Assembly (NCBI GenBank): GCA_023247055.1
Contig: JAHFHF010000005.1
Location: 18,985-82,984, forward strand
Length of the DNA stretch: 64,000 bases
Source of the DNA: Candidatus Omnitrophota bacterium
GTDB lineage: Bacteria > Omnitrophota > Omnitrophia > Omnitrophales > Aquincolibacteriaceae
Reading direction: 5' to 3'
The position numbers and the translations under genes were made by a program. The notes below the pieces were generated by a model. That model searched no databases. It had not been told where the DNA came from and saw only the letters and a list, made by a program, of their open reading frames with translations. This document shows, piece by piece, positions 1-28,081 of the stretch (positions are counted from its first letter, which is position 1; every line of letters starts with the position of its first letter).

Positions 1-3000
1 TATGTGCTGCTGGCGTTGCAACAGCGTTTTCCCGATCAATTCCCTCAGGCCGCAGCCGAAAAGCTGAGCGGATTCTTTCAGAGCTATCAACAGCAAACCC
101 CCAGCCGTCCTGCGAAAAAGGGAGACATCATCGCCTTCGGTGCTTTTGAAAGTCCGCAGCAATTTCAAGATTATATCGATTTCAAAGATGAACTTTTGTT
201 TGCGGTCGTCCCGGCGCCGGGAAATTGGCGGTTTCAGGATCACGCCTATGAATTTATGGCCCAGCGCAACAAGGGCCGGATGGAGATGACCTTCTATCGC
301 GGAGATGGAACAATCGATGAAAATAGAACGGCAGATGACAAACTGCTCGAGAGCGGACTGCTGACAAAAGGAAATATTATTTTTGTGCTGCGCGGAACCC
401 CAAATGGGATTTCAATGCCGCCTATTTTTCCTCGAGTCGCCGGCCGGATGGGACACACCCACCCTCCGGACACTGTTATTCCAGGGGAAAGCGAAAATGA
501 TTCGCTGACCTATCTTGCGAATCATCAGGAACTAGGTATTACCAGGCGTAACTTGCTTTCTGCCCGCTCCGAAGTGCGGCACACGCCGGATGAAATAGGC
601 GCAAAGATGGCTGAAGCGAGGCGATTGATTGCGGGCAATCAAATTCAGCAGGCAGAAGATACTTTGCTGGAGCTTTTTGAAAGTTCGCGCCAGGAGTGGG
701 ATGCCCGGCAGACGTATAAGGATGAAACTGCAAAAACGGAAGTTAAGGGAGATGTAGGAGATTTGCTTCATTTGGCGGAGTTAGCGCTTGCCGCGGCCGT
801 GGCATTGGAGGATTCTGAAACGCCAAAAGCCAAGAAACGTGCGTGGAACCCTTTTCATTCTTTCGAATATTTTTATTTAATAGCACGCTCTCCGGAAGTT
901 GTGCCCTTTTTGCGAGAAAATCATGCTGCTTTCCAACAGATGGGGCTTTATGCGGGGTCGTATATTTCGAAAATGAATGAGTTGCAAAATCAGGAAACGC
1001 AATCCCGGCAATATGGGGGGGAGCCGCCGGAAAAATTATTGCAAAATTCTAATCTTGTAAGCCCCCATTTTTTTGCATTAGCTAAAAATGTTTCAAGGCG
1101 ATTGCACGGCGAATTGACATTTGAAAACGGAGAGAACCCCTTTAGGGGTTTGCTGCGCTTAAATGGAGAGTTCAGCGGCACCACTGCCCATTTTCCGGAC
1201 CATCAAGCGCTCGAGTTTTTGATTTCCCATGCTTCCATCCTGCTGGAACTGAGTGCTCCTGCGCTTGCGGGCTATTTGCAGTATTTGGCGCATTATATAG
1301 CCAAGACTATGCAGACAGACGGGTATTACGAAACCGAAATCAATCGAGGAAATGAAGACCTGCCGCGGATTCAGGTTTACAGGAATCCTTTAGCCAGCTT
1401 AAGTATTCTTCAAGGGCTGTTTTCTATCCAAAATGATTCCCAGGATCAGAAAACAAACAGGGCGATAAACTATCTTCGCATCATGTCGCTATACGTCTCG
1501 TTGGACCAGCCGGATTCAATCCTGCAAGTTCTCGATGAAGTTCTTCCTGAATTATCTAAAGTGGAGAAGAAGGATCGGGATGTATTTGCATACACCCTTC
1601 TTAGAATTTACAGATCGAATTTGACGGAAAACCAAAAAGCAGAAGCCGTCCGCCGGGCGGGCTCGTCTTTTCACGTCAAAAAGATAATCGGGGATATCAG
1701 CAATGAACAGGCGCTTGAAATTTTAAACCGTTTAGCACGCCTGGATGCCCAGTCCGCATTGCCGCGCATGATTCCTGAAACCACGCCCGAATTTTACAGC
1801 CGTCATGCGGAATTATTGACGGCTTTTGAAGGCCTGCCGGCAGCGGAGCAGGATGCCCTCGCGAATTTTTTATACGAAGAATTTGCCGACCGAAATTTAA
1901 CAGAAGCCTCTCTCAAAGCGCTGCTTAGCCCCCAGGCGGTTTCTTTTTATGCCAGGCATGGCCGGCAATCCGAACTTCTGGTTTCTTTTATCGCGCGTTT
2001 CCCCGGCCAGTTAGAGGCCATTACCCGGGAAGGCAGTGAGTTTGTGGCTTTAATGCTGCAGTTAATCCAGTTAGATCCTAAATTTTCAAAAGGATATATT
2101 AGTTTTCTGCATTATTCGGAACAAAGCGAATATCTTCAAACAACAGAGGTTTTGGAAAGATGGATTCAGCTTGTTAAAAAAGAGCCCAAAGGGGCAGAGC
2201 AGGTCTTTGCCCTTTTGCGGAAACGGCCGGAACTGGCGCCTGCCATTTTATTTGGGGGCATTTCGGAAAGTTTGATGCAAATGAAGCCGGATGTCCGGGC
2301 AAGTTATGTGGATGCCGCGGGCAACAGATCGGCGGAAACTTCCGCAGAATGGGTGGCCCCTGCCATTGCCGAAATCGCTGCGGTATTAAAAGGCCGCGCG
2401 GAGGCGGAAGCATTCAACAAGAGGTTTACACAAGACGAGGCCTTTCGGACATTAACGCTGGATGAAGCAATGCGCGCGCCGCTCATTGAAAATTTGGCGC
2501 GCCAGCCAGTCGCGACCCAAGCATCCTATCTTAGAAATGTCACGCCAGACATTTTACAGGATCCTGCCATGGCCGATTTTCAGGTGCGTCTCGACGCCAT
2601 TGAAGACGCGGAGTTGAAAGGGGAAATCCTGGAAGCCATCTCGAAAAACAAAGTTTTCAGAGACTATCTGATGCAGGGGGGCCTGGGTTTTCTGATAGAG
2701 TTGATTCAGAGCAGCCCCGACGCGAACGAAGGTCTAAATCGGGCTCAAGGCTATGTCCTCATTCTGCGCTACGATTCTTCCGGTGCTCTTACCGTCGCCG
2801 ATTATCAAAGTATTCAAGGAAAATACGGTGGGCTCCTGACGGATGCGGAGGTACCCTTATCCTTTTCTGCCGAAATCCTAAGGCTTGCAAGGAACCAGCC
2901 TGCCTTAATAGGTCACATCGATTTGACCCTGCTGAGAGAACTTCACAATCAATTGGGCGAACTTTTCGATGATTTTATTAACATTGCCTGTGAGGATCCG

Positions 3001-6000
3001 CCGGTTTTAACGGAGATGCATTTTCATAGCATGCTTCGCAGTCTTCGTGCAGATTCAAGCATCGCGGGGGATAGATGGCTTGCCGCCGCAAAACCCAATT
3101 ACCGGAACCGGCACCGTTTTGCCTTACAGCTTCTAGAGCCGCCTAAAAACCGCTTTCCGACAAGCGCGCAGATGGCGGATTTGCTCCTTGCCCTCCGCCG
3201 CAGTGACAATGCCGGCGGGGTCGATTTTTTTGAGCGTCACCAAGCTGCTGTCAAACAAATTCACCCGCAGATTTTACAAAGATTAGGCCGCATGCAGCAG
3301 CCCCCCCAAGAAATTTTTGATGCGGCTGCGCTTGAGACGCTGGCTCAATTTTCTAATCCGGCCGCAGCTCAACTTTTACTGGAAGAAATAAATTATTTAG
3401 CCTACGCATTAAAGCAAGGGAAGATCGATGCTTCAACTGCCGCTGCCATGAGAAATAAAATAACAGCATTGATTCAGAACCCGGCTGTTTTGAATGCCGA
3501 CGAGAAAAAAATAGATCTGATCAAGCAATGGCTGCAACAAGCCCGTGAGCACGCGCAAGTGCACGCTATGGGACTGCACTTTATTTTCAATCTTGAATTC
3601 GATGCGGATGTTATGAAGGAACTGCTTAAAGGGTGGCGAGGCGAAAAATTCTACCTCGATTTGTTTGACGAGACGGTTTTGACGATGCTGCAGAATGCGA
3701 AAACAGAATTTGGAAGCGGTTTAACCGATTCGATTTTAGCGGCTGCGAGTGGTGAGCGCGACGTTACTTACCTTAAAACGGCGGATTATTACCGAAATAT
3801 CCGGCAGAAAATTCTGTTTTTGTTCGCAGCAGACGGGTTTAAACAATTTCCTGCCAGGGCCACCAACGATGCTGCCTTGAAATTAATACGTATCGATCCG
3901 GAGACCTTGAAAGCTTCGCTGCAGAATTTAAAGGCGTGGCTTGGAAACGAAGTGATCGATGCTCAATTGGCGCAGGGACAATTTCAGGTTTTAAATCAGT
4001 GGGTTGCTTTTGAAAGTCAAATGACCCAAGCGGGGCATGGAACTGATCTAAAAGATCATTTGACCCGCGCTCCGCCAGAACTCGATCGTTCGGAATATTT
4101 TACGGTTCTTAGCGGCTTGCATCTGGAACTTGTAGGGATGTTGATCAATCTCGACAAAGACAAGGCGCCGGAGGATAAAAAAATCGAGAGAAATTGGCAA
4201 GAGAATCTTGCGGCTTTGAAGACCCTCGATGAACTCTACCGTGGATTACTTGCTTTAAAACAAGGCCAGACAGCCGTGGATCATGCAATTGCTCATCAAT
4301 TCGTGCAGCGTCTGTTGAAAACCGGAGAAAGGGGGCTGGTGAAGGAAGCCCAGTTATTTGTCCGGGGGTTGAAAGCGGGCGTTGTTCCCGTGGCGCTTGT
4401 CAGCGCTTTCCTTGCCCGGGCTGCGGCTACGGGAAATAATGAATTTACCAAGCGAGTCCATATTTTGAAAGTTTTGGGTGAACTGCTTCAAATCCACTCA
4501 AGTATTACGAAAGTAAAAGCCTTGGAAGGCGTATCTGCGAAAATTGTTCAAATTGTTAATTTGTTTTTAAAAGCAGAAAAAGCTGAAATCGGGCAAGTCC
4601 GCCGTTTGCATCAAAAATTGCTTGCGCGGCTTTTAAGCGCGGTGACTGGAGAGAATAAAATCTCTGAACCGGCTGCATCCGCGCTTTCAAAAGACCTTTC
4701 TTTGCTGCCTAAAATCCTGACAATTATTACCCTTTACTATTCGCTTGAAAAGCATGGGCAGGGGCGCATCCAAGACCTGAAGGATCACCTGCAGACCCAG
4801 CTCAGGGAATTTATCTTGACGGGAGACCGGGCGCGCATCCGCAAAGCCATTCTCAAAACGGAAGCCAATCAGATTATTATGAAAAAATTAACCGAAAGCG
4901 GCTACGATTTACGTCTTTTAGAAGAAGGTTTTGAAATCGAGGCTGTGGCCGCATCCTGGGACGAAAAAGAAAAAGAAGACGAAGTGAAGGCGACAATCCG
5001 GCAGTTGTCGCACGATATTATCGAAATTGCGGCCCGGCTGGGTTTCCAACAGCAGGTCGAAGGGGCTGCTGCTGTCAGCCAGTTTGATCATGCGTCCGAT
5101 GCGCAGGACTTTGTAACGGCTATGGCACAGCAGTTTCCCAACAATCCGGCGCTGGTTCAGGCCGATATCGTTGTGGCGCAGATGCGCGAGGTCGAAGAAC
5201 GGGCTCAAAAAGAGATCCGCGCCAAACGCAGTGAAAAAATCCGCGTCGTGGTGCGCAAAGATTTTCTGGATGAGGCTTCTGCCGGCGGGTATGACTATCT
5301 TGGCAGTACCGTGCCCGGCTGTTTTAGCCCGAATGGGGCGCATCAGGAAAGGCCGCCCCAGACTTCGGCCGATGCCGGCGGTACTTTCGCCATTGCTTAT
5401 GACGAAGCCGGAAGAATGATTGCCAATGTCGACCTAGCCTTTACGGATAAAGGCGTAGTGGTCTATACCGCTTACAGCAGCCGCGCCGATCTTAATTTGG
5501 ATCCGGTTTGGTTTAAAGTTTGGCAAGTTTTATCGAAACTGGCTCCGGCCGTTATCCTGGATCCCGCGCATCGATCTGCAGGCGTCAAGGAAGCTTCCAA
5601 ACAAAACCAGCCTGAAAAAAATGTAACGGCTGAAAAATTAGGATCCCAGGGATCAATGTATTTCGATTTCGGCCGGTCCGACGCCGCCGGAAAACTCTCT
5701 TACGCTTTTTCGGAAGCTATCGTTCTCAGAAGCGCGCAATTTCCTGAGGTTCAATCGCCCTTTTTGGATTCCAAGGAAGCTTTACCCGCGTCAACAGCAT
5801 CCGCCGCACAAACAGGCAAAAAAGAGGATGCTCGTGAGACAGTTCAACCCGTAGAGAAGTTAGATCCTAAAAAGTTAAACGACGAAGAACAAAGAAAAGT
5901 TAAAAAAGAACTCTTCGATTTGGGTTTAAAGGACATTGATTTTGCCCCGATTTTAAGAAACTTGAATGAGATTATTTTAACCCCGGGATTTGACCTTGCC

Positions 6001-15000: not shown

Positions 15001-18000
15001 CGTCGCACAAATCGAAAAAAGAGCGCCGAAAAAATTATAGTAAGGAAAATTGTTTCTAGTAGTAATGATGTTTCCGAAGGCGTCGGGTCTGCAAAACCGG
15101 CAGCCCGCTCCGAAATGCGCCTACCAGCGCGAGCCGAAGTGCGGACAGGCAGTATGGCGGAAAGAATCGCTAAAGAAAGGCTTCACCGCCAAGATGTTCT
15201 GGAGCAATTCCGGGAAATGCGTCGCGATCTTTCAACGCGTACAACCATTCGAAAGCAGGTCGGACCAGATATCTGGGAGGATCGGAAGATGACCGAGGCC
15301 GATCGGGAGAAAGAAGCGCGGCGTCTTGACAGGCAAGTCCAATATGCCCAGCAGCGTTTTCTTTTGGATTCGGATGCCCTGATCGCAAAGCAGCTTGCTG
15401 TGAAGGATTCATTCGCGGCTTTGAAAGGGCATCAATCAGGCGCGTTTGGGGATAAAGCCCGTTTCCGCCATGATTTTGAGTTCGCTGTTTCTAATCGTCT
15501 TGGCTCCCTGTTTAATGAGACGCCTCCGAGCGATGCCGACCTGCTTTTTGTCCAAGAAGCCCTGAAGCAAATCCCGGAAGAAATCTCACGCCGCCCGCGA
15601 TGGATTGCGGATGATCAGGGGAATGTTTATTCCTACATTTCGGGAGGCGGGGAGCGATCCTACTATGCAAATGAGCAGACCGGCGAGGGGGTTTATGTTT
15701 ATGGGTACCAACCGCATTATCCCAATGTTGCTCTGAAACACCTGCAACTCTATATCGCCATCATCAACCGGCTGCGCGCTGCTCCTGAATTCCAGAACTC
15801 GAAATTTGCCATTCCCGAGTATGAAGTCGTGGTCCTGCATCAGCCCGGATTCGAACAAAATTTTTATGGGCTTAAAACAAGGCATATTCCGGGGACGCTC
15901 GCAGGCGCAGATACGACCAGATATAGAGCCAAGGTGGATGCTTTTGTGACGCTGGCCAAACGATTGCTGCATGACATGCTCTATGCGGGCTATTTAGTGG
16001 ACGACGGCGAAAATGCTTTGGGCAAGCCTGATACGCATTTTAATAATTTCATCGAGTCTGGGGGCACTTTTTACGGCGTCGATCTGATCACGATGAGCGA
16101 TATCATCAAAGGCGCGGACAGTCTTGCTCGAGACCTCGGCATCCAAAGCCTGCCGGAAAAGGAAGATTTGCCTGCTTACTTGCAATCCCCAACTGCCGAA
16201 AAAATTAAGGAATTGTTTTTTCAGGCCGTGAAGGACTACCAGAACATCCCTCGCTCCGATGCCGGAACGGAAACCGGGCTTTCTATTTCAGACCGGTTGC
16301 TCATTGCGAGGGAAAAGCTGGCGGTTTTTACGCAGGAGCTCGTCAAAAAATGGCTTGAAGGCGCCTATGATGAGCCGGGAGTCAAGCCGGTCGAACTGGG
16401 CAGTCTTGACAAGCCAGAGGTTGTGCAATTAAAAAGGCTTATTGACGGAAATCGTATGGGAGACGCTACGAGTTACGTTGCAGACAAGGAACACCCGCTT
16501 TTTCCCTATCTTCTCTACCTTGTTCAAAGCGATAGCCTGCCTGTTCCGGCAGGCTTTGCCGGCGAAGCGCCCAGCATGAAAGCGACGCTTTTGGAACAGC
16601 TTCAAAACGGCGCCTTGACCAAAGGAAATTTGAATCTTGGAGACTATTTCCGGGATTATCGCGACTGGGACCAATATGGTTTTATCCGCAAAGAAACCGT
16701 GGTGGCCATTGAGCTGAGAAATGAATTTCTAAAGGGCCTTGTACGGGAAAGGCTATTTTCAGGGTTAGTGCCGGCGGCTTTGGATTCCTTGGACAAGTTG
16801 AGCGCGCAATCCGGTGTTGAGATTCCCTCTGAAATCCGCGAAGAATTTACAACGGCATTGTGGAAATATGTGGACCTGGAAATGCAGCAGCAATGGTGGA
16901 GTGTCAGTTCAGAGCGCTTCGGTCCGCTGGACAGTGTGATCATTGAGAAAATCCGGGCCAGCAGCCGTTCCGAGATACGGATCGGCGCAGCCCTTCAACG
17001 GGCGCTGGCAAAAAAGCGCAGCCCTGAAAAAAGAGCTGAATATCTTAGAGATCTGGCTAACGGGCTTGACGATTTTTCAAAATTTTTGCTCATGGACGTG
17101 ACCTATGGGGAAATTCAAAGAACGAGCCATCCCCCCGGCATTGCCAGAATAAAAGAGAATGTGGAGTCTTACGCGCGGGCCCGCGTGGAAATGTTGCTGC
17201 GTTTTGATGAGGAAACGCGCCGGCGTATTGTCGGGGCCAGCGCGACCGAAGACAATGGGCCTAATAATGAGTACGCGCTGAGATCGTTTTTTAAAGCGGT
17301 CGAGGTCTTCGAAAAGTTACTGGGCGCGGACTATGATCCGGCCGGCTTGCGGGAATATCTTGTGAAAATTTTGACCTACTATTTTACGGGCGCGGAATTC
17401 GAGAAGCGATGGAGCAACGATGCGCAGGATTTGCAGGCCATTGTGGAGGGCGAAGCCTTTGACGCAGGCTTTAATGAGATCACTTATGAAAAGATTTCTA
17501 CGGGCACTTTTTCTTATACCCACAAGCCAACCGATGAATGGCTTGGATACGACAGCCGGGTAGTTTTAAAATATACGGACGAAGTCTCGCAAAGAAACGA
17601 ATTTTACAGGTTGACCGGGTTTTATCCGGAAAACGTCCACGACAAACAAGACCTTTTTGCCCCGCCCTATTTTTATTATTCGCAGTTGATCAAAGCCCAT
17701 GTGAATCCCCGGGATCAGGATTTGACAGTTGTTTACGGGGACCTGCGCTACAACAGTAATATCGCGATCCTTCTGATGCAAACCAATGCCGCAAAAGCTT
17801 ATTTGCCTGCCCGCAATAAAGGAACACTTGAGGAAGCACAGGCGGCTCTGGAAAGCTGGGATTTTGAAGAAATTCGCACAAGGGCGGAAGGGCTTGCCCG
17901 GCCTGTGAATGCGCCATTGAGCCTGGGAGGATTCACACAACAGGTCGCCTATGGGAAAAATTTTGCTAAAGCGGTAGTCAATGAACTCAAAGGTCTTGGC

Positions 18001-21000
18001 CTAAAAAAAGAAGATGTGCATGTTTCTCGAGACGAAAAGGGACGCCTCGTTTTTAAATTTCCGTGGGGTTATCCAGGGACGCAGGAGAAAAAAATTCGCA
18101 CGATTATTTTTTCAGATACCGATTTAATCGATGAGGGGGAAAGAAAAAGTTTCATTCAAACGCTCGCCGGCGAAACCATCCATCTTTATTATGAACACCC
18201 GGGCCAAATTAATTTGAGTGGGGAAAGCCTTGAAGCCAAAAATGAATACCCCGCGCTTCTAGCGGACATGGCCAATCTGTTGCCGCCAGACGGGCGGATC
18301 GTGACCGGCCAGTATGATTCCTGGGGCGGGCGGATTGAAGACCGAGGCGGAAATGACGAGAGTGCCGGACGAAACGTTTTGGCCCAGAGTTTTGTTCCGG
18401 AAGATCTTTCGCGGAGTGCACAATGGTGGAGCCGTGGGATTCCGGAAGCACATCGCTTGGGTTTTGGAGGAAACACCCGGATTTTTAAAAGAAGCGGAGG
18501 AGCAGTGGTCTCTCCAGAAACAGCCAGGCCTTCTCTCGAGCAAATACTGCCGCATCGTGAGCAGCCCCTTCGTTTTGCAGGTGATACGAGGATCGACTTC
18601 AAGGCTGTCCCCGACACGAATTATTTTCTCGCCTACGTAAAACAGCTTACCGAGGGAGCAAAGTATTTAAAAGCTTTTGTGGATGCGGTCAATTACCCCG
18701 GAGAAGTTTTGAATGCCGATGCGAACGGAAGAATTGCCAATGATCCGGATCAATTAATTCAAGAAGCTTTTGACCATATCGTCCGTATACGTCAGGGTGA
18801 GGAACAGGCGAATCGCGGCAGAAAAGAATTGGGTTTTGACTCGAAGAATGATTTTAATGATCTGAGCAGGCCGGAGAACCTAGTGGCCATGATGTCCTAC
18901 CTGGCGTTTGGCGAAGTCCTGCCCTGGGACAATGCGGATGACACCTTGAAAGGGCGCTTGCAAAAAGCGCAAAGTCTTGCGCGGTTGTTTGATGAGGCTT
19001 TGCCCCCAACGGAAGATGTGGAAAATGCGGCTCTTCAAACCATCGCCTATAAGGATTCCAAAAGGGCCCGTGGAATTCTTTTGGAAACAGTGGCGGTTTT
19101 TGCGTTAATTGAGGAAATGATCTTAGACTTTGAAAGCAAAGGGGAAGGGACGGATAAAAGTCTGACTTTCGATCAATTTATTCAGGCAGTCCAGAACGAA
19201 CTCAAAGAGATAAAAGAAACTTGGGGCAATAAGCCGAGAGCTCTTGCCAGAACAGAGGATAAAAAGGGAAGAAAGCGGCTGCGCAGAACACAACAGGAGG
19301 AAAGTCTTGTTCATATTCTCATTGAAGACGACCTCAAGGGAATCAAGCAGCTTGCAGAACGCGCCTTGAACATGGCTTTCGGCTACCGGCCTCAAGACCA
19401 AGGCACGGTGGTGACGCTGCCCCGCTCCGAAGTGCGGAGCATTGTGAACGAAGGGCTTCCCGAGACTTATCCTGGGCGAGATATATTCAGCGCTAAAAAT
19501 ATTCTTGAGGGAACGCCGCTGTGGGAGAAATTGAAAGAGTTTAATCATGGAAAATATCCGGCAGTGATTAATGTTTCCGCACAAAGTACTAAAGCCGCGA
19601 AGGAGTCTTTTGACCGGCAAGTTCAGCATCTCGATAAGAAAGAGATCGTTTATGTCTACTTTCAGATCGAAAATAAAGGCCGCATTACTCATCTTGTCAA
19701 TGTGGATGAAGTTCAGGCGATTGATTCGGAAAACCCCGCGCCGCTTGGACGGCACCCTTTTGTTCTGGCATGGATTGAAGATTCTATAGCTCAAAATTTG
19801 CATTTTACCAGAGTCTCTTTGGGCAAGAACGACTCCGGTCAAGCGAATGATCCGCTGCGCGGGCAGGGCCTCATGAAGCCCGTTTTTGGGCGAATGGAGT
19901 CACTCATAAAATCTCGTTTTCAGGGCTGGACAATCTCTTCCCTGGCGCTGGATGAAAGCGGAAGTGTTCAAAAATTCCTTTCCCATTTTTCAGGAGTGCG
20001 GCACATCACCACGGCACAGGAGGTTCTTCTTGACGATCGCGGTTATGAAAAAATAAGTGAGGGTGATCCGCAGCGATGGGGAAAATTTGTTATGGGCCGT
20101 ATCGCGGCTGGAAGAGATCGCTTGGATCAACCCGCGGCGTATGGTGAAGATAACAAACAGTTAGAAAATTTTTTAAATGAAAGAATTTCAGAAATTCAAG
20201 CTCGCCTTGCTCATTTAAGAGAGGATGTTCAGCACAGGCTTGCCGTGTTGCAAGCGAATTGGGATCAGGAAAGAAGCGATGCTCCACGAAAGGCCAGCCG
20301 TGTTATTTCCGCTATGATAGATCTGATGCGTGGGGATCCTGCCCGTGTGCTTATGTTGGAAGATATTGAGAGGGATCACCAAAGAAAAGGGCTTGATTAT
20401 GGGCAAGAGCAGACGCGTCATCTGGAGAAGGCTCTTCTAGGCCGTATTGAATATAAACAAAAAATCATCAAGAACTCAATTGTATCGCCAGTCATAGTTC
20501 TGGAAAGACAGCTTCACTTTTTTGAAGCAGCACTTCGGTCGCTGCAAGGCGGTGAGGACGCCGCAGGAGCAAGCTTTAAAGCAGAACAAAATGCCGAAAG
20601 ACTCTTTGACAAACTTGCTGAGACTGGCTATGTCGGGGCATGGAATTTTGAACTGCGGGCCAAGGATAAAACGGGCCGTGAGGTTGAAAGATGGAGTGAG
20701 GCGGAAACCCTCGTATTGGAGGTGCGGCTTAAAACGGATGTCGTGGGGCAAATTGCTCTTGATAGGACGCAGCTTCAATTAGCGGGAGACATCTATAAGG
20801 TTTTAGGTGAGAAATTAGCAAGCTTAAAACCGGCTGATTTAACAGGGGCTCAAGAAAGTTTCCGCGCATTTTTTTTAAAAGATCTTGCTCAGTTAAGCCA
20901 GTCGGAGTCTGCTGATATCACAAGAAATACTCGAGATCGTGAGGAGATAGCTTTTGATATGGCCAGTCGTGTTTTGGTTGGCTTTTCTAAAAAAATAGTT

Positions 21001-23757
21001 TTGATTGATTTAGAAAAATCATCAGAGCGGAACCTGCGAGCTGCTGAGGGTGAAAGGCCAACGCTTGACGCACTGCTGGATGCCCAGGTTACAGGGTATT
21101 TAAAGGAGTTTGGATTGTACGGTACCGTGGACTTCGCTTTAGATGGTTTGAAAATTGGACTGCGCCCACGGATCAATTTATGGGTAGAGGTGGGAGTCGA
21201 CCGTGCGGAGTTTGAGAATCAATTGAGCCGCGATGAAGCCTTTTTTACATATAGAAAAGAAAAGAAAACGTTGAATGATATTTTAGTTTTTTTATTGTTT
21301 CATTCCGATGGCAGTCCGCGTGCTGAAACCGAAAGAGAAGCGCTGCTTGAATACACGATGCAGCGCATCGCCGATCTTCAATCTAAAAAAATAGCTGAAC
21401 CCGCAGCCCGCCGCTCTGAAGTGCGTACTGCTCAGCCCAGCACGGCCAGTGACGTTTCTATATCGAATATCCCAGAAGGTTCAAGACGGATTGTCAAAGA
21501 TGGGAAAACTCTTTTTATCACACCGCAAGCAGACCGGGAAATGCAAAGGCTTGATCAACTTGTCGCCGAACGATCGATTGCAGCTGAGTTTTTTGGTTTT
21601 GGTTTGACGAAACAAGTGGAAGATGCTGCTGTTGTCATCGATTTTGTTGTTCCGGAAGCCGTGTATGATTTCGAAAGTCTGTTTTTCGATCAATATCTTT
21701 CGCCGTTGAGAAATGCGTTGGCGCAGTCAAAAAACCTGAAGCTTGCTCTCAGAGAAGACAATGTCGCGCTTATTTCCGATGATGAGAAATATACCTTTGT
21801 ACTCAAAGTCATTGGGAATGAGGCTGCCGGTTGGGCGTCCATTCGCTCTCATATTGAGAAGCTAACCGGCAAGGATTTGCCGGAGGATGTGACGCAACTA
21901 AAAGACCTTTTGAAGACAGACTCTATTGCGGTCAATACAAACTGGGATATGGTAACTTCCGTATCAGGTTTGATACTTACAGAACATTTTGTGAATCGGG
22001 CAAATCAAAGAGCTGAAGAATTAGGCGCCGCGGTGGGGTTTACGATGCATCACCATCCGCAAGTAAGTCTGGCTGTTTTGGTGATGTCTGAGAAACCCTT
22101 GGATAAACGGCGCCTCTATTTTAACGATTTACTTAGGCCGTCTTCCGATGATTTGACAACGATGAAAAGATTGGGCGTTGATTGGTTCGAGATTCGAGCT
22201 TTGGGAACGCCCGAAGATATGGCCTCTCGATCAAAAATAACAAGTGCTTTTTACAGCATTGCTGAAGTCGACCGGTTAGGCCAGCCGGCGAAAGAGGTTA
22301 TCGGAAAACTGCTAGCGCCTGAGGCCCAACAGATTCTGCCACAAACAATGACTGCACTAGTGATTCAATTTTTGAAATCAACGGCAAATCTTTCAGATGC
22401 GGGTTATGACGTTCAAGAAGTCATTAAGTATTTAGCAGGAAAAGAAATAGTTTTACGGTATCAGAGAGAACTGGATGACAATAAAAATATCCGGTCGATA
22501 AGAGATCTGGTTTTGTCTGCTATTTTTTCCAAGGAGCCTCTTTCTGCCGTAAACGACTTAACGCCTGAAGTTCTAGCCCTCCATGTCGAACTAAAAACTT
22601 TTGATCTTTATCAGCGGGTTTTAGCGGCCAACCTGCAAAGCCCCGAAGATAGGCAAGTACTGCTGGACATAGATTTTTGGCATCTCCCTAGAGAAAAAAA
22701 CGTCACAAAAATCAGAGACAATGTAAGCCGGCTTCAGCAATTATTAACTTCCAGTAGTCCCAGTTCCATTGCCGAAAGTTCTGGCCCTGCGGAACAAACC
22801 TCATCCCGCTCCGAAGTGCGGGAAGCCGCGGCTAACCTGGATGAGCTCAAGGTGACGGCGGAGACGCTTGGGAAATTTGCGGCCAGTGGAAAGATTTCAT
22901 CGCAGGAATTCTGGGAGAATGTGGCGCTGAAGCTTGAGCAGATGGAAAAGAGCGGGGCTTCGCTGGATGAGATGACGCGTTTTATTCGCCGTAAGGTCCA
23001 TGCCTATGTCGAAAGCTATCGTTCGGAAACGAAGACGGTGGATGCCGATACAGTCGATCTTCTAGCGGATATGCTGACGAATGTTATCAAGGCGGCATTT
23101 GAAAATCGCAGCGAAGGCGGCGTGGCGATTGGCTGGGCGGTAGGGTCGCAGGATGGACCTTCGCGGCTGTCGGCTGTTTTGAACATGATCGCACGGTTCG
23201 GGCAAACCGGCGCGTTGGAGCGGGTTGTCTTTGCTGGGGAACGCGGCGCCCGGCAAGCGGTCAATAGCGCTGTGCAGCGGCACAACGATCTTGGCAATGT
23301 GAAATTGACATCCATGCCGGCGCTAAACCGCGGCTTGGATGCCTTTTTGGCAACGCAAATGGTTTTACCGGCTATGCATGGCACGGAAGACTTGAAGGGG
23401 ATTGCAGATATTGTGTTGGGTGTCGGGCTGAGACCTGATTTGGGCGCAGAGCCTTCCGAAGCTGATCTTGCGCTGATTGAGATGGCGCAAACGATGGTTC
23501 AAATCACCGTGGCTATCCTGCTGGCTCAGCAAGTCGATGCGCCTGGAAAAGTGATAACGCCCGAATTTTTAAAAGCATCGCTGCTGGATAAAATTCTGGA
23601 TGTCAAAACTTTCCGGCTGAGCGAGCAAACGGTCAATGGCCTGCTGCAGCTTGACTCCAAAGGCCGCCTAGTTGTTTCGCAAAACGGGGTCTTTAACTTG
23701 CTCCGGGCCATGCAGACGGCCATCGCCGCGCGCCAGGCTGCTGCCAAAGCCGCGTAA
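1..23757 (+). CDS. Giant protein, 5'-partial (at least 7,918 aa inside the window, TAA stop at 23755-23757). It is modular, with internal TM segments, twin-arginine-like motifs, an HExxH motif at about 7425-7440 and a recurrent ARSE[MV]R motif.
   Basis: Uninterrupted frame-1 ORF of 23.7 kb in the supplied track; coding-like composition throughout; recurrent in-frame motif copies; enters the window already open, so the true N-terminus lies upstream. Confidence 0.8.
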   Translation, partial: YVLLALQQRFPDQFPQAAAEKLSGFFQSYQQQTPSRPAKKGDIIAFGAFESPQQFQDYIDFKDELLFAVVPAPGNWRFQDHAYEFMAQRNKGRMEMTFYRGDGTIDENRTADDKLLESGLLTKGNIIFVLRGTPNGISMPPIFPRVAGRMGHTHPPDTVIPGESENDSLTYLANHQELGITRRNLLSARSEVRHTPDEIGAKMAEARRLIAGNQIQQAEDTLLELFESSRQEWDARQTYKDETAKTEVKGDVGDLLHLAELALAAAVALEDSETPKAKKRAWNPFHSFEYFYLIARSPEVVPFLRENHAAFQQMGLYAGSYISKMNELQNQETQSRQYGGEPPEKLLQNSNLVSPHFFALAKNVSRRLHGELTFENGENPFRGLLRLNGEFSGTTAHFPDHQALEFLISHASILLELSAPALAGYLQYLAHYIAKTMQTDGYYETEINRGNEDLPRIQVYRNPLASLSILQGLFSIQNDSQDQKTNRAINYLRIMSLYVSLDQPDSILQVLDEVLPELSKVEKKDRDVFAYTLLRIYRSNLTENQKAEAVRRAGSSFHVKKIIGDISNEQALEILNRLARLDAQSALPRMIPETTPEFYSRHAELLTAFEGLPAAEQDALANFLYEEFADRNLTEASLKALLSPQAVSFYARHGRQSELLVSFIARFPGQLEAITREGSEFVALMLQLIQLDPKFSKGYISFLHYSEQSEYLQTTEVLERWIQLVKKEPKGAEQVFALLRKRPELAPAILFGGISESLMQMKPDVRASYVDAAGNRSAETSAEWVAPAIAEIAAVLKGRAEAEAFNKRFTQDEAFRTLTLDEAMRAPLIENLARQPVATQASYLRNVTPDILQDPAMADFQVRLDAIEDAELKGEILEAISKNKVFRDYLMQGGLGFLIELIQSSPDANEGLNRAQGYVLILRYDSSGALTVADYQSIQGKYGGLLTDAEVPLSFSAEILRLARNQPALIGHIDLTLLRELHNQLGELFDDFINIACEDPPVLTEMHFHSMLRSLRADSSIAGDRWLAAAKPNYRNRHRFALQLLEPPKNRFPTSAQMADLLLALRRSDNAGGVDFFERHQAAVKQIHPQILQRLGRMQQPPQEIFDAAALETLAQFSNPAAAQLLLEEINYLAYALKQGKIDASTAAAMRNKITALIQNPAVLNADEKKIDLIKQWLQQAREHAQVHAMGLHFIFNLEFDADVMKELLKGWRGEKFYLDLFDETVLTMLQNAKTEFGSGLTDSILAAASGERDVTYLKTADYYRNIRQKILFLFAADGFKQFPARATNDAALKLIRIDPETLKASLQNLKAWLGNEVIDAQLAQGQFQVLNQWVAFESQMTQAGHGTDLKDHLTRAPPELDRSEYFTVLSGLHLELVGMLINLDKDKAPEDKKIERNWQENLAALKTLDELYRGLLALKQGQTAVDHAIAHQFVQRLLKTGERGLVKEAQLFVRGLKAGVVPVALVSAFLARAAATGNNEFTKRVHILKVLGELLQIHSSITKVKALEGVSAKIVQIVNLFLKAEKAEIGQVRRLHQKLLARLLSAVTGENKISEPAASALSKDLSLLPKILTIITLYYSLEKHGQGRIQDLKDHLQTQLREFILTGDRARIRKAILKTEANQIIMKKLTESGYDLRLLEEGFEIEAVAASWDEKEKEDEVKATIRQLSHDIIEIAARLGFQQQVEGAAAVSQFDHASDAQDFVTAMAQQFPNNPALVQADIVVAQMREVEERAQKEIRAKRSEKIRVVVRKDFLDEASAGGYDYLGSTVPGCFSPNGAHQERPPQTSADAGGTFAIAYDEAGRMIANVDLAFTDKGVVVYTAYSSRADLNLDPVWFKVWQVLSKLAPAVILDPAHRSAGVKEASKQNQPEKNVTAEKLGSQGSMYFDFGRSDAAGKLSYAFSEAIVLRSAQFPEVQSPFLDSKEALPASTASAAQTGKKEDARETVQPVEKLDPKKLNDEEQRKVKKELFDLGLKDIDFAPILRNLNEIILTPGFDLARLLSELKTRPASRGAQPGIPTQNDLEALKRKILELQAEHRIPRGFEEFAEIVQREAPRLRSLRGNARQEELLRILQNTLSETRGVDLSRRPSREVGAIPSRFIENAQLQIESQAAEALTSRLDEARGLLGAASPQEEEQDLIEILFGEYIPQASEVVLSGELIMENGQARLEIKQPGETLAILDQNRVPQGQRTLQFEIYVRQGNLHMEIVDLVASDSSEALRFYANFAQWAQFVSNHLQVPLVIEHETAIFSGRASRFGFHQIKQAQSLIKDNWIKKIQPLLAELGIPGENFATHGVNLDNFRYYEGIITPRPLTGRSEVRTAPEHAARALLHQTKIETRQRHESSRRAFLTALGAAAAGVFIAGDHFSPKEKMNPWRIAVEPEISIDPNVLVENQQAAAVQKIQQWRNDLQRELKEVNTDPETKEIAGELARILGQTAVVYRDQDYPESEPTRIIVDHRAMQGRAQFYISVIHEALHHYYNRNQMLLPETEMVSGFQTAHDLEFYLWPGEEGWVIKQTNVLSAALGIFPEFLKASNADEILYFNGDWLTLPAIAERIQGGHEVAERAALLVKFLPLIAQGQELFFLNQASQKNRQAAEQLLVDILPKNSALDPIIRAALEPALKLNAWLKQNGALSYPRRSEMRGAAPEDESIAETAAASVFQDFISGRSGGKISGRDRQRDLRLLRLVGTRVLAAMPSSVDSKDKSVLLNNFLSRIAMDMVSPEAIRRYLGELSYVLAQAETRLGSGDAGKKVINEIMKAQGRLLPFIQNENSDGQRFYTPEPYRGIENFRRFFDFVFEGWDKTGTGRKGYAANGSVLIHFALETAREKGFSTRQLETRGWRQLLPFLRLNQINFGGQVYRLGKAEILNGAVTTEFAEGRNFIFRADLEDAAGVAQKQILVKLGVKNPEFDEVVTEMARTMGLKTYAVERFDAGEEADKDGFHPIALQLIEFVPSQIVFAQGQDGDGRKISYPNLSPLKTLEAGAKTQALEELGEHLALDYLFGGRDSMMKHFLLTREGRFIKIDNEFLFEYSATPQYPRLAGTLEAQSDFWDFLAALKEGPPMEGWDSEAAIRHGFDRVLTKIAFNDGGAKERLFKIIETRRTSAQQDSLSLDAIKRGIEQRAGHSYEFLKSIAKSARSEMRSIPRIPIPDAVRGETSDSSTSPRGRRPVTRRTFLGLGMWGGVLLTSFSVAKYFGSETERQKKIRESRQRREKQEKIPSKTPWDKFPLDDVKRSDTEKIRQSLQVTLDWLIQTGYGEADILDEYAGYLAQARPGEGLYHSLMSKSFHLKKGIEIEFNERHLLELIRQVKNSESLDLFVVTLAAMIMRESLGLQIMMHAQKPLEEIAKGTEKLELARRKRMPADEMNMYSQPLREFLSQNENEIDRLLALSFAFEYLEAEAEWNFYAAASARNDFSVQGANEALNTVNARALALADRLRVSADSASLLMETQGDDFLIFRSQLAGMTVEKYQLLKQGELARKRKELPEANFLLVNYGTFMEVNRFQPAEEPGKQVGLSPAIIGSMERREWPDFDGFTPYAKRLWPQFHTAVAQLRKDLPFAHALFEAQKKDLLRRMKRLGSDLKPLLDRKSRPEAPLFDGGAKAGNAASVRSEMQFVTPDSSTSPPGRRPVTTDEILKTIISKARSEIRKTLIFAAVVSGGALLAAVGYLKWPSIQRWFESRKSPEEPSSGRRDFLKQALAAASAAALKPSRGLLGVLSPALKPEFTIKTAMGQVAQEEAVSWIKIVTGIETTPSVLPPILSPNKSVVEFVKAIEVEPISSWENLVPPGYEHLLGPSLGGMSDLRTVMINEFIGRLAEKKLSNGRSPLENFGIYEPLGSGRRTYTVAGETYTDYGLTFELRDIADLIKQHLPDGFEDAAWTDAALDRAVSHFAQALTTNPALQNQVRKFRQVKTQERSRKLQQRRDGEENLVMLKKQLAVAERSRRDFANGVGFDGMRDFRTDIDELDDRIKKLTDQIRWEETYVLTLKTALSARSEMRGTAAQQPTLASIFLILGRVSRMASSSVVTLFSMAPSLSLTSVISRQSEATFSLIKDWFDSNLSIRTPTSVAEKFLSFMKRTLLDLRRGVNINFINNLFNKKPNSLSATGRWNMPERGFARSEMRTPRPSPEWERLETLLRKQPTIDIAYTNDFKQLPASQRAELFRKVLYNEYNLSTQGSHAAILNMPIPSAWVVQVRSLIYGMQDAESVSVFLRALQDPSLDLSGFFDAAGLQLSDLLREKPEIILQSLSEQALSLSGLVDLVIQQQASGLVVWLRDLLMHPEVPRAQKFAAMRRIYEKSIVLLNESRPLTPGLETLLPGAMISWELSQSDSEPSVTTQDLKERGRKIRLERLMALNDIFQFVASFIRQNVAVRYSDVENALRTHPEISLKFINLPLAVRAKILSKVALFFHNKYLAKELFEDARRRYSLEDYERMAKNIEALSRDLKQAYRDGAAGDVKLLRSQIRYVRKSLKWLHEKRVAAFYQELTGRKEIPEIIYLELGDASLIVRTDFKSLQKLVDSPQIAKPVEQSVFSQFLSQFSEDRPVPDKNKLRELLAEFPRYIVENFQNEMIAYLAGGTELRYRNFDDLILFYRDNYADWLKKYLERTLYQDAATRTQKQELAALISEIWQGPEWNTVYQQLKNAKALLDQLVDAKATLLFHQSENGAAFEKTTARRKAYLEAGTSIMGILQFVPLSRLAPLQDLLEEYEKQIQTQNISPKQRLRDREQPSMVKAGKERSFQTSGFYSDGIIYTPLESESLVIDHETQHLIHGLYTSDHVRGILPSQGEFNEQLYEALKHTKAARSEMRTASRDQDIKGEDLTVKGTSAENFVMDGENSSIERLRNLLWSENDPRRRLGQYPVIIQDYDANRPGSGKVILRSDDDDVATMPFVPDDPFWDEINAQLNGGISPDHLRRMEDKAGKPIDKFLRSVKFFVLPVFILIFIDGVLGGPVIGRAPWIMANFERAMVMLILSTAVTSLGATGIFYAKKWFLGRRTNRKKSAEKIIVRKIVSSSNDVSEGVGSAKPAARSEMRLPARAEVRTGSMAERIAKERLHRQDVLEQFREMRRDLSTRTTIRKQVGPDIWEDRKMTEADREKEARRLDRQVQYAQQRFLLDSDALIAKQLAVKDSFAALKGHQSGAFGDKARFRHDFEFAVSNRLGSLFNETPPSDADLLFVQEALKQIPEEISRRPRWIADDQGNVYSYISGGGERSYYANEQTGEGVYVYGYQPHYPNVALKHLQLYIAIINRLRAAPEFQNSKFAIPEYEVVVLHQPGFEQNFYGLKTRHIPGTLAGADTTRYRAKVDAFVTLAKRLLHDMLYAGYLVDDGENALGKPDTHFNNFIESGGTFYGVDLITMSDIIKGADSLARDLGIQSLPEKEDLPAYLQSPTAEKIKELFFQAVKDYQNIPRSDAGTETGLSISDRLLIAREKLAVFTQELVKKWLEGAYDEPGVKPVELGSLDKPEVVQLKRLIDGNRMGDATSYVADKEHPLFPYLLYLVQSDSLPVPAGFAGEAPSMKATLLEQLQNGALTKGNLNLGDYFRDYRDWDQYGFIRKETVVAIELRNEFLKGLVRERLFSGLVPAALDSLDKLSAQSGVEIPSEIREEFTTALWKYVDLEMQQQWWSVSSERFGPLDSVIIEKIRASSRSEIRIGAALQRALAKKRSPEKRAEYLRDLANGLDDFSKFLLMDVTYGEIQRTSHPPGIARIKENVESYARARVEMLLRFDEETRRRIVGASATEDNGPNNEYALRSFFKAVEVFEKLLGADYDPAGLREYLVKILTYYFTGAEFEKRWSNDAQDLQAIVEGEAFDAGFNEITYEKISTGTFSYTHKPTDEWLGYDSRVVLKYTDEVSQRNEFYRLTGFYPENVHDKQDLFAPPYFYYSQLIKAHVNPRDQDLTVVYGDLRYNSNIAILLMQTNAAKAYLPARNKGTLEEAQAALESWDFEEIRTRAEGLARPVNAPLSLGGFTQQVAYGKNFAKAVVNELKGLGLKKEDVHVSRDEKGRLVFKFPWGYPGTQEKKIRTIIFSDTDLIDEGERKSFIQTLAGETIHLYYEHPGQINLSGESLEAKNEYPALLADMANLLPPDGRIVTGQYDSWGGRIEDRGGNDESAGRNVLAQSFVPEDLSRSAQWWSRGIPEAHRLGFGGNTRIFKRSGGAVVSPETARPSLEQILPHREQPLRFAGDTRIDFKAVPDTNYFLAYVKQLTEGAKYLKAFVDAVNYPGEVLNADANGRIANDPDQLIQEAFDHIVRIRQGEEQANRGRKELGFDSKNDFNDLSRPENLVAMMSYLAFGEVLPWDNADDTLKGRLQKAQSLARLFDEALPPTEDVENAALQTIAYKDSKRARGILLETVAVFALIEEMILDFESKGEGTDKSLTFDQFIQAVQNELKEIKETWGNKPRALARTEDKKGRKRLRRTQQEESLVHILIEDDLKGIKQLAERALNMAFGYRPQDQGTVVTLPRSEVRSIVNEGLPETYPGRDIFSAKNILEGTPLWEKLKEFNHGKYPAVINVSAQSTKAAKESFDRQVQHLDKKEIVYVYFQIENKGRITHLVNVDEVQAIDSENPAPLGRHPFVLAWIEDSIAQNLHFTRVSLGKNDSGQANDPLRGQGLMKPVFGRMESLIKSRFQGWTISSLALDESGSVQKFLSHFSGVRHITTAQEVLLDDRGYEKISEGDPQRWGKFVMGRIAAGRDRLDQPAAYGEDNKQLENFLNERISEIQARLAHLREDVQHRLAVLQANWDQERSDAPRKASRVISAMIDLMRGDPARVLMLEDIERDHQRKGLDYGQEQTRHLEKALLGRIEYKQKIIKNSIVSPVIVLERQLHFFEAALRSLQGGEDAAGASFKAEQNAERLFDKLAETGYVGAWNFELRAKDKTGREVERWSEAETLVLEVRLKTDVVGQIALDRTQLQLAGDIYKVLGEKLASLKPADLTGAQESFRAFFLKDLAQLSQSESADITRNTRDREEIAFDMASRVLVGFSKKIVLIDLEKSSERNLRAAEGERPTLDALLDAQVTGYLKEFGLYGTVDFALDGLKIGLRPRINLWVEVGVDRAEFENQLSRDEAFFTYRKEKKTLNDILVFLLFHSDGSPRAETEREALLEYTMQRIADLQSKKIAEPAARRSEVRTAQPSTASDVSISNIPEGSRRIVKDGKTLFITPQADREMQRLDQLVAERSIAAEFFGFGLTKQVEDAAVVIDFVVPEAVYDFESLFFDQYLSPLRNALAQSKNLKLALREDNVALISDDEKYTFVLKVIGNEAAGWASIRSHIEKLTGKDLPEDVTQLKDLLKTDSIAVNTNWDMVTSVSGLILTEHFVNRANQRAEELGAAVGFTMHHHPQVSLAVLVMSEKPLDKRRLYFNDLLRPSSDDLTTMKRLGVDWFEIRALGTPEDMASRSKITSAFYSIAEVDRLGQPAKEVIGKLLAPEAQQILPQTMTALVIQFLKSTANLSDAGYDVQEVIKYLAGKEIVLRYQRELDDNKNIRSIRDLVLSAIFSKEPLSAVNDLTPEVLALHVELKTFDLYQRVLAANLQSPEDRQVLLDIDFWHLPREKNVTKIRDNVSRLQQLLTSSSPSSIAESSGPAEQTSSRSEVREAAANLDELKVTAETLGKFAASGKISSQEFWENVALKLEQMEKSGASLDEMTRFIRRKVHAYVESYRSETKTVDADTVDLLADMLTNVIKAAFENRSEGGVAIGWAVGSQDGPSRLSAVLNMIARFGQTGALERVVFAGERGARQAVNSAVQRHNDLGNVKLTSMPALNRGLDAFLATQMVLPAMHGTEDLKGIADIVLGVGLRPDLGAEPSEADLALIEMAQTMVQITVAILLAQQVDAPGKVITPEFLKASLLDKILDVKTFRLSEQTVNGLLQLDSKGRLVVSQNGVFNLLRAMQTAIAARQAAAKAA

Positions 23758-23775
23758 TTTCAAAGCGCTCGTAGG

Positions 23776-24019
23776 TTACTCGATGATGCGAATGTGGCCC
23801 GTCTTTTGGAGTACGATCAATCCTTTGATTTTTTCAGCGGATAGTTGAGTTAGCAGATTTTTGATCGCTTCAACCAAAGTATCTGCATAGGGCGGGTGAA
23901 TTTGGACGTGCAATTTCAATATCAGGCAAAGAAACTTGAACGCGTACGCAATCATGGCCTAATTGGGAAAGTGTTTTAAGAATTTTTACCGGCACATCCT
24001 CGTCGATCAGGAATTTCAT
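23776..24019 (-). pseudogene. DUF5615-like (PIN-like putative toxin) remnant, frameshifted near 23890.
   Basis: Minus-strand translation from the ATG at 24019 gives MKFLIDEDVPVKILKTLSQLGHDCVRVQ..., which matches the DUF5615 N-terminal consensus. The frame then breaks and continues in another frame (...DTLVEAIKNLLTQLSAEKIKGLIVLQKTGHIRIIE*). No DUF433 partner is present. Confidence 0.45.
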
Positions 24020-24409: not shown

Positions 24410-24571
24410 ATAGGGTCACTCCTTATGCAAATATTCTTTTAAAATTGTATCATGCGAGCGCATTCTGGAGGATGGCTTTTTCGACGAGGGCCGGGCCCTT
24501 TTTCGGGCCCGGCCCTATCGTTTTTCCGTTTCTTGCGGCATTTCCAGCCCTCTGATATCATACCTCCCGCT

Positions 24572-28075: not shown

Positions 28076-28081
28076 TTTTTC

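Follow-up and report, generated by a model that had tools for sequence, protein, structure and literature searches.

A recurrent RSE[MVI]R peptide at the module boundaries of a giant bacterial open reading frame: a possible polyprotein-like gene

Results

A giant open reading frame enters the window

We analysed a stretch of 64,000 nucleotides (the window) from contig JAHFHF010000005.1 of the Candidatus Omnitrophota bacterium assembly GCA_023247055.1. At its 5′ end lies the 3′ part of a giant open reading frame (ORF), hereafter the giant ORF, and at its 3′ end a second giant gene, ORF2. The features of both are collected in Table 1. A preliminary description of this DNA had proposed a single giant frame that enters the window already open, and this interpretation was supported overall. 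Frame 1 of the plus strand stays open from position 1 to 23754 (7,918 codons), and its stop, TAA, is at 23755-23757. The base composition predicts one stop in about 19 codons, so that a frame of this length would stay open by chance with a probability of about 1e-183. For the ORF we measured a GC content of 48.8% and not about 52% as first stated; the window mean is 51.4%.

In assembly ERZ27280021 of the European Nucleotide Archive (ENA), contig k141_5769294 (33,788 bp) is 100% identical to window positions 14572-30451 (15.9 kb compared). The giant gene is called there as a 9,030-residue product from contig position 2, and therefore at least 1,112 further codons lie upstream of window position 1. 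Upstream extension, a check suggested in the preliminary description, thus lengthened the gene, with its start still beyond the contig end. Another contig of the same assembly is identical to window positions 42130-63203. As the ENA assemblies may share reads with the source metagenome-assembled genome (MAG), these comparisons are independent at the level of assembly only. An exact-match DNA scan of the JGI contigs with the first 60 bases of the window gave no match.

A third comparison was provided by a contig of assembly ERZ27276474 (12,155 bp; L001, where L codes denote compared DNA loci and P codes relative proteins). It differs from the window at two bases only. Both differences are in-frame nonsense changes, located 75 nt apart and just 5′ of a domain with a methyltransferase fold. 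The probability that two random substitutions both give nonsense is about 5e-4. The pair suggests a knockout haplotype in one population rather than an error in the window or general decay.

The GC contents of the three codon positions (GC1/2/3) were 0.59/0.39/0.49 in each 1.5-kb block of the giant ORF and 0.61/0.40/0.60 in the housekeeping genes of the window. Since GC1 and GC2 are at the housekeeping level and GC3 is lower, the frame is coding-like over its whole length and weakly codon-adapted. The housekeeping genes of the window end in TGA (11 genes), TAA (7, or 8 with the giant ORF's own stop) and TAG (5). All three stops thus terminate conserved genes, which indicates the standard code and rules out a non-standard one. 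We conclude that the giant ORF is a genuine bacterial chromosomal gene of at least 9,030 codons.

A recurrent peptide separates unrelated segments

The preliminary description had mentioned repeated short modules in the ORF. We traced them to the peptide RSE[MVI]R, which occurs in 13 strict copies in the frame of the giant ORF, where about 0.03 are expected, and twice in the frame of ORF2. None was found in the remaining four frames, and the motif is absent from the other ~32 kb of the window. Including the variants RSEMQ and RAEVR, the giant ORF contains 15 copies. These score 27-43 bits with a weight matrix, and the rest of the protein stays below 8 bits. We found no literature account of this peptide.

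The copies split the window part of the giant ORF into about 15 segments of 36-2,131 residues. We detected no similarity among these segments or between any of them and ORF2. Searches for internal domain repeats in the giant ORF and for similarity between the giant ORF and ORF2 found none. The motif flanks are rich in P, S, T, A and G (0.39-0.40 vs 0.31) and hence linker-like. GC3 per module ranges from 0.41 to 0.62, with 0.41-0.42 at residues 4002-4125, 4813-5038 and 6478-7605 and 0.62 in the last module (7606-7918). This spread is consistent with a mosaic origin. Cysteine accounts for 0.025% of the residues of the giant ORF compared with 1.05% in the housekeeping genes, and for 0.36% in the giant proteins of the family compared with 1.35% in ordinary ORFs. 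As judged from its sequence, the product is pieced together from some 15 modules, which are unrelated among themselves, mostly helical and nearly Cys-free.

At the DNA level, the motif in the giant ORF reads C-CGY-TCN-GAR-RTG-CGG, with Ser never encoded by AGY and Arg never by AGR. Position 4 of the motif in the window is ATG in eight copies, GTG in six, and ATC and ATA in one copy each; Leu does not occur there (P ~6e-5). RNA folding at the motif, as a possible hairpin, gave -12.0 kcal/mol, compared with -6.7 kcal/mol in controls, but only in the form of two competing 4-bp registers in the GC-rich motif. A genome-wide DNA repeat of the REP or uptake type was considered and rejected, since the 15 coding-strand matches of the 16-mer are all in frame in giant ORFs. 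Outside these frames we found one match (56976-56991, minus strand, 2 mismatches), which is chance-like, with 0.5 expected.

Hydrophobic and Tat-like segments follow part of the motif copies

Next, we compared the positions of the motif and of hydrophobic segments. Within the family, a segment resembling a transmembrane (TM) helix starts at most 30 residues downstream of 9 of 32 motif copies. By chance 2.0 are expected, and 0 of 2,000 simulations reached 9. Upstream of the motif such a segment was found for 0 of 32 copies. Read from position 4, several copies consist of [M/V/I/L]-R and then a hydrophobic core, resembling a signal sequence. By a hydropathy scan, the giant ORF has about 6-8 hydrophobic helices in its 7,918 residues, with 0.6% of positions hydrophobic; ORF2 has more. 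The internal TM helices previously placed at about 14800-15010 were recovered as a pair of hydrophobic helices.

Downstream of the motifs at residues 2318, 3142 and 3649, at a distance of 30-47 residues, lie RRAFL, RRTFL and RRDFL, respectively, each with an A/G-rich hydrophobic stretch. By chance, about 0.2 matches to RRxFL are expected in the giant ORF. The segments SRRAFLTALGAAAAG, TRRTFLGLGMWGG and GRRDFLKQALAAASAAAL agree with the consensus S/T-R-R-x-F-L-K plus an uncharged h-region. Like signal peptides of the twin-arginine translocation (Tat) pathway, these three segments thus combine S/T-R-R-x-F-L with an uncharged A/G-rich stretch. Unlike them, they are internal rather than N-terminal (residues 2346, 3175 and 3695), and the best match to the Pfam model PF10518 (E 0.22, 12 bits) lies below the cutoff of 22.7. 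Because the segments are internal, Tat function would be possible after cleavage only.

Few modules of the giant ORF have detectable relatives

The giant ORF of at least 9,030 codons is nearly free of homologues among 5.8 billion proteins. Word-indexed searches of these with the N-terminal 1,200, middle 2,494 and C-terminal 1,443 residues returned a self fragment only. In Pfam, no family passed for the ORF halves or for 10 individual modules (E up to 1), and NCBIfam and PDB sequence searches gave nothing usable. A reference-genome scan with the first 800 residues had no match, and none of 80 loci anchored on the pyrophosphate-dependent phosphoenolpyruvate carboxykinase (PPi-PEPCK) had a similar ORF or the motif in a syntenic position. 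Residues 5039-6238 were also run by exhaustive HMMER against 1.84 billion representatives, which revealed distant relatives at 26-35% identity. Profile searches, as suggested in the preliminary description, therefore failed with the Pfam and NCBIfam families and succeeded with HMMER for three modules only, namely 4, 10 and 11.

Modules 4 and 10 both have homologues in P0002, a protein with an ORF2-type N-terminus. BLAST aligns module 10 with P0002 from exactly the junction onwards, where P-A-R-A-E-V-R-T stands over P-S-A-S-S-L-G-Q, i.e. RAEVR over ASSLG. The module 10 core carries a conserved DxHxxNFI...GxDL pattern (16021-16086), which would fit a kinase-like protein. A single-sequence AlphaFold model of this module was unusable (pLDDT 42.7). 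Module 11 contains a domain of about 200-300 residues, matched by about 20 proteins with HMMER, whose family is not in Pfam. Like class I S-adenosylmethionine-dependent methyltransferases, it has the Rossmann-like methyltransferase fold. It differs from them in the glycine-rich motif I, which is VYGGAGxDIS in the relatives and VVYGDLRYNSNIA (YGDLRYNSNI) in the giant ORF. Because motif I is decayed, the domain may be inactive. It is also found in P0003, P0013 and P0020, all with an ORF2-type N-terminus; with P0002, these are the ORF2-family members that share modules with the giant ORF. The HExxH motif noted earlier (HEALH) is present, accompanied by another (HETQH). These two copies compare with about 0.16 expected, and neither has a family match.

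Two further observations concern these relatives. In secreted relatives with the module 11 domain (P0010, P0011, P0012, P0018, P0023, P0025 and L086 1796-9931), A-(Y)-A-L-R-(V/A/T)-P stands straight after the signal peptide. P0008 and P0021 have in common a C-terminal domain (~120 and ~100 residues, respectively) that opens with GGIDFR(G/S)LPIVTQ(P/A)MS and has conserved Cys, unlike the rest of these Cys-poor proteins.

ORF2 defines a family of giant genes

The ATG start of ORF2 has gagggag in front of it, and in ERZ27280021 this ORF extends to at least 3,510 residues. Its product starts with a membrane anchor, has many hydrophobic segments and only 3 Cys. It shows the N-terminus of its family, a signal anchor followed by IHIQDxH...LEG...VLVTGGFH (E down to 3e-28), which is found in at least 346 JGI metagenome relatives; its orthologues are L094 (56% identity) and L093. 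A profile search of PDB sequences with the N-terminal domain returned none. We tentatively assign this domain to the Tiki/ChaN type, as PF04187 matches 1 of 5 members of the domain family with E 7.5e-4, below the cutoff, and DUF5694 with E 0.013.

The related JGI loci contain many ORFs of more than 3,000 residues, often two in tandem, so that tandem arrangement of giant genes is often seen in the ORF2-type family. The giant ORF and ORF2 share modules or N-termini with the relatives named above, and both have the RSE[MVIL]R-type junction peptide and the depletion of Cys. The comparison makes a solid case that they belong to one family of giant, presumably membrane-associated modular proteins outside curated libraries.

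At L097, L100, L119, L121, L128, L142, L144, L145, L152 and L162, an ORF of more than 3,000 residues ends just upstream of an ORF2-type gene.

Junction peptides recur in relatives and differ between lineages

With the N-terminal domain of ORF2 as a probe we found 346 related JGI loci, of which 80 were collected. RSE[MVIL]R occurs in 8 copies in 3 ORFs of L095, in 4 copies in L146, in 2 copies in L149 and once each in others. Across the related loci, 15 occurrences lie in ORFs of at least 1,000 residues (0.9 expected) and 0 in ordinary ORFs (0.8 expected), and scrambled control peptides gave 0-2 occurrences. The codons of the motif are free in the relatives: Arg is encoded by CGC, CGT, CGA, CGG or AGG, Ser by TCT, TCG, TCC or AGT, and position 4 is mostly GTT, GTC, GTA, ATC, ATA or CTG. 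A constant peptide with freely varying codons means that selection acts on the peptide. In L146 and L149, which are apparent orthologues, the motif is found at the same two positions with diverged flanks.

Other lineages have other peptides. In L086, [K/S/M/V]GAMHE occurs nine times across four large genes in a row, of which three are paralogues with the motif after a signal peptide, at residue 40-63. The L086 junctions are also conserved at the nucleotide level, as GGCGCGATGCATGA, across the four adjacent genes. EGAMRE, four times in L116, is intermediate between GAMHE and RSEMR. In L087 the copies are of the ASSAV type, and one of them uses other codons; in L088 the peptide is AAPGM, whose synonymous sites vary freely. 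P0002 has a weakly recurrent peptide of its own, ASSLG, ahead of its homologous modules. A recurrent junction motif was not found in every relative. These comparisons suggest that a junction role is common across lineages, with the sequence of the motif differing by lineage.

A recurrent peptide of P0013, TSHQSLVT, was considered as a junction and rejected, because it results from translation of a tandem heptanucleotide repeat, which is found in intergenic DNA as well. In L092 (MAG GCA_016206665.1), heptanucleotide repeats ((A/G)GTCAC(T/C))n were found at 1449-1487, 1734-1772, 2608-2646, 2722-2760 and 18741-18779. They are intergenic and also in frame in a 4,771-residue gene, where they encode (P)ATSHQSLVT in loops of a conserved domain.

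Discussion

A proposed polyprotein-like gene and the alternatives

The giant ORF is a real, modular gene, and its recurrent peptide is conserved across organisms, lies at module boundaries and stands upstream of hydrophobic segments. A short conserved peptide at the boundaries of unrelated modules is also a feature of polyproteins that are processed at protease-specific sites. We put forward, with slightly less than even confidence, that the giant ORF encodes a kind of polyprotein, from which the modules would be freed by cleavage at the junction motif. The giant ORF would be translated as one chain, and [A/S]-R-S-E-[M/V/I]-R in linkers rich in small residues would be a proteolytic site at which the chain is cut into separate module proteins. 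For several of these products the new N-terminus would be [M/V/I]-R, with a twin-arginine-type or hydrophobic signal or anchor behind it that could direct their own export or membrane insertion. A processing site is suggested because signals work near free N-termini and because the motif is lineage-specific yet present in several giant genes of one genome, at module boundaries. We infer the cleavage, the responsible protease and the export of the pieces from this arrangement. It is a rather doubtful extension that a dedicated protease cuts after the E of RSE[M/V/I]R to give at least 14 pre-proteins, several with their own Tat or Sec signal, and that the junction peptide co-evolves with this protease by lineage. 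Hints of a protease are the two HExxH motifs of the giant ORF and a subtilase domain in one distant relative, P0020.

Several observations weigh against such processing. A cognate protease family was not identified with Pfam and NCBIfam in the giant ORF, the window or the relatives. One stretch of 2,131 residues (192-2322) has no motif, and about two thirds of the motif copies have no signal-like segment downstream; the putative Tat-like signals were assigned by consensus matching only. In ORF2 and its orthologues L094 and L093, the motif is not at fixed orthologous positions and copies turn over within linkers, so that individual copies are dispensable; such turnover in linkers is typically seen with short linear motifs. 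Moreover, the base at -1 is C in 14 of 15 copies despite six different preceding amino acids (P ~3e-6), and CGG encodes the last Arg of 12 among 14 copies (P ~2e-6). The conservation of synonymous sites and of the -1 base, here and in L086, is beyond a purely peptide-level function. One possibility is that the extra nucleotide identity at both loci reflects a recent spread or recombinational homogenisation of the junctions.

Alternatively, the product could remain an uncleaved membrane-associated scaffold of about 1 MDa, with the motif serving as a topogenic n-region, a docking or recognition peptide or a modification site. We consider this possible, if on the unlikely side. It would account for a conserved peptide in linkers that is directionally upstream of hydrophobic helices, like a charged TM flank, for the failure to find a protease and for the turnover of copies between orthologues, which is typical of docking motifs. 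However, two thirds of the copies have no nearby TM segment, and five invariant residues exceed what the positive-inside rule needs. The twin-arginine-type signals 30-47 residues downstream would be expected to work close to a free N-terminus, and the unrelated modules resemble independent proteins, which one relative combines differently. A less probable alternative is that the 16-nt sequence C-CGY-TCN-GAR-RTG-CGG acts on the DNA as a site of in-frame recombination or fusion, through which modules or adjacent genes would be joined, deleted or shuffled, while crossovers homogenise the copies and the peptide is merely tolerated. The nucleotide identity beyond coding needs in the giant ORF, and likewise of GGCGCGATGCATGA in the four adjacent genes of L086, speaks for it, as do module combinations that differ between lineages, the mosaic-looking GC3 of the modules (0.41-0.62) and the arrays of separate large genes that some lineages have in place of one ORF. 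Yet L095, L146, L088 and ORF2 keep the peptide with different codons at most synonymous sites, every copy lies in frame and on the same strand, a 16-nt sequence offers very little length for homologous recombination, and the neighbourhood has no recombinase. Recombination may nevertheless explain the growth of the ORF and its young-looking copies without being the function of the motif.

Two other explanations are very improbable. In a stop-less operon, the M/V/I of the motif would be an internal start codon and the modules would be translated separately, as might be suspected from a position 4 that in the window is ATG, GTG or ATH and never Leu, and from the signal-like sequences after some copies. 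This was refuted by the relatives, whose position 4 is mostly a non-start codon, and by the missing Shine-Dalgarno sequences upstream of the motifs, which several genuine genes of the window do have. In addition, the residues on either side of position 4 are conserved as amino acids, and more than 9,000 stop-free codons would be senseless under separate translation. It is equally hard to believe that the ORF came about by chimeric assembly or is a decaying pseudogene that merely happens to be open. Such an artefact might be read from the two in-frame stops in ERZ27276474 and from a protein nearly all of which is without relatives. Against it stand the chance of about 1e-183 for the open frame, the 100% identity to another assembly with a longer gene call, the uniform codon-position composition, distant homologues for three modules, one of them methyltransferase-folded, and a motif under purifying selection across organisms. 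The two stops themselves are the only differences in 12,155 nt, which is the pattern of a knockout variant.

Comparison with known giant proteins

Most of the known giant bacterial ORFs come from Omnitrophota (West-Roberts et al. 2023, bioRxiv 10.1101/2023.11.21.568195; Nielsen & Lui 2026, bioRxiv 10.64898/2026.06.07.730766). Those authors also suspect post-translational cleavage, and one of the two papers states that cleavage points are not known; neither paper reports cleavage points or junction motifs (bioRxiv 10.1101/2023.11.21.568195; bioRxiv 10.64898/2026.06.07.730766). According to the main paper on giant bacterial genes, the want of known cleavage points blocked further analysis. Like those giants, the ORF described here is a single frame of the order of 10,000 codons in a metagenome-derived bacterial chromosome, with TM segments or signal sequences, largely unannotatable sequence and very divergent domains. 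Subtilase domains are also shared, through the relative P0020. The Archaeovorin and Dockerin types exceed about 10,000 residues, and the giant ORF has at least 9,030 codons. In contrast to them, it has no Pfam or NCBIfam match to SecA_DEAD, dockerin/discoidin or C39 domains, and by the hydropathy scan it appears to have few TM helices (0.6% of positions hydrophobic) where they have numerous. Its genomic setting, with a full heme pathway, PPi-PEPCK and a Liv transporter, is unlike that described, and the defined junction peptide that is central here is not reported there. Because the hallmark domains SecA_DEAD, dockerin and C39 were not found, we did not file the giant ORF with either type.

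Viral polyproteins contain junction peptides that are specific for their proteases, such as the sites of potyvirus NIa and picornavirus 3C. The giant ORF resembles them in combining unrelated modules in one ORF with a short conserved peptide between them, which is uniform per genome and lineage-specific (RSEMR, GAMHE, GAMRE, ASSAV, AAPGM, ASSLG). It differs in that the gene is bacterial and chromosomal with candidate junctions, and that in some genomes the copies are conserved also at the nucleotide level. In MARTX toxins, effector modules are released by an internal cysteine protease domain (CPD) that cleaves at Leu-X sites. These are likewise very large bacterial proteins of unrelated modules, and release by linker cleavage is what we propose here. 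However, RTX repeats, a CPD domain and type I secretion genes were not detected in the giant ORF or its neighbours, and the giant ORF has a defined five-residue junction and some modules with their own Tat-like or TM signals.

Bacterial genes tens of kilobases long are turning up in many uncultivated lineages, and the question is whether they make one megadalton chain or pieces. What is new here is that the junction peptide is defined and that export signals are associated with it on the downstream side, which makes this question directly testable. The motif also provides a rule for splitting giant ORFs into units for structure prediction, and the ORF2-type family is one that curated domain libraries do not capture. 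If a dedicated junction protease does exist, giant genes of this family would be compact 'stop-less operons' at the protein level, with products predictable from sequence.

Table 1. Features of the giant ORF and ORF2 in the window
Feature	Position	Strand	Remark
Giant ORF, 3′ part	1-23757	+	7,918 codons + TAA; true start at least 3,336 nt upstream of window
RSEVR copy 1 (aa 189)	565-579	+	
RSEVR copy 2 (aa 2318)	6952-6966	+	Tat-like signal 30 aa further on
Tat-like signal SSRRAFLTALGAAAAGVFIAG	7036-7098	+	weak Pfam TAT_signal match, E 0.22
HExxH motif 1 (HEALH)	7423-7437	+	
RSEMR copy 3 (aa 2642)	7924-7938	+	
RSEMR copy 4 (aa 3142)	9424-9438	+	Tat-like signal 34 aa further on
Tat-like signal TRRTFLGLGMWGGVLLTSFSVA	9523-9588	+	
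Module 4 region weakly homologous to P0002 residues 654-864	9853-10461	+	E 1e-5
Degenerate copy RSEMQ (aa 3615)	10843-10857	+	
RSEIR (aa 3649)	10945-10959	+	TM helix directly after
Hydrophobic helix TLIFAAVVSGGALLAAVGYL	10963-11022	+	
Tat-like signal GRRDFLKQALAAASAAAL	11083-11136	+	
RSEMR (aa 3999)	11995-12009	+	
RSEMR (aa 4123)	12367-12381	+	
HExxH motif 2 (HETQH)	14308-14322	+	
RSEMR (aa 4810)	14428-14442	+	
Hydrophobic (TM-like) helix pair	14818-14982	+	helices 14818-14880, 14920-14982
Double junction RSEMR (aa 5036) + variant RAEVR (aa 5044)	15106-15144	+	
Module 10 core, homologous to P0002 residues 1424-1829	15163-16377	+	E 5e-44 (local)
RSEIR (aa 5656)	16966-16980	+	
Trp codon TGG, TGA in ERZ27276474 (L001)	17410-17412	+	differing base 17412 = L001 position 329
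Tyr codon TAT, TAG in ERZ27276474 (L001)	17485-17487	+	differing base 17487 = L001 position 404
Predicted class I methyltransferase-fold domain, module 11	17518-18495	+	motif I decayed to VVYGDLRYNSNIA (17728-17766)
RSEVR (aa 6475)	19423-19437	+	
RSEVR (aa 7138)	21412-21426	+	
RSEVR (aa 7603)	22807-22821	+	
ORF2	55538-64000	+	same family, runs off window 3′ end
ORF2 family-defining N-terminal domain (IHIRDLH...LEG...VLVTGGFH)	55820-56992	+	
RSEVR copy in ORF2	57506-57520	+	
RSEMR copy in ORF2	61940-61954	+	last Arg = AGA

Genomic context

The rest of the window is ordinary bacterial chromosome. Scans for tRNA and Rfam families found none in the window, nor did we find rRNA, phage or plasmid relatives of the window, or a recombinase near the giant ORF. 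The housekeeping genes expected downstream from the preliminary description include PPi-PEPCK, MscS, a Liv-type ABC transporter, FolD, PanB, a response regulator, a nitroreductase, PFK and the heme pathway genes hemA, hemC, cobA-hemD and hemB.

The toxin/antitoxin debris that had been described after the giant ORF is backed by a truncated DUF5615/PIN-like fragment. These decayed remnants lie directly downstream of the giant ORF on the minus strand (23779-24415). A 49-residue ORF (23873-24031) matches the first 29 of 110 positions of DUF5615/PIN-like only (E 1.4e-5), and a RelE/ParE-looking N-terminus (23979-24254) and a 65-residue antitoxin-like ORF (24215-24415) have no Pfam match. The PPi-PEPCK gene (24572-28075, plus strand) matches PF26300 in precomputed annotation and shows 56-66% identity to homologues across many phyla; the NCBI call is 40 codons longer, with its start at 24452. 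Three consecutive ORFs of 286, 196 and 192 residues without Pfam match occupy 34152-36171 (plus strand), with overlapping or abutting stops and starts. Upstream of panB, an intergenic tandem repeat (44287-44469) consists of 3.1 copies of a 58-nt unit with 99% identity.

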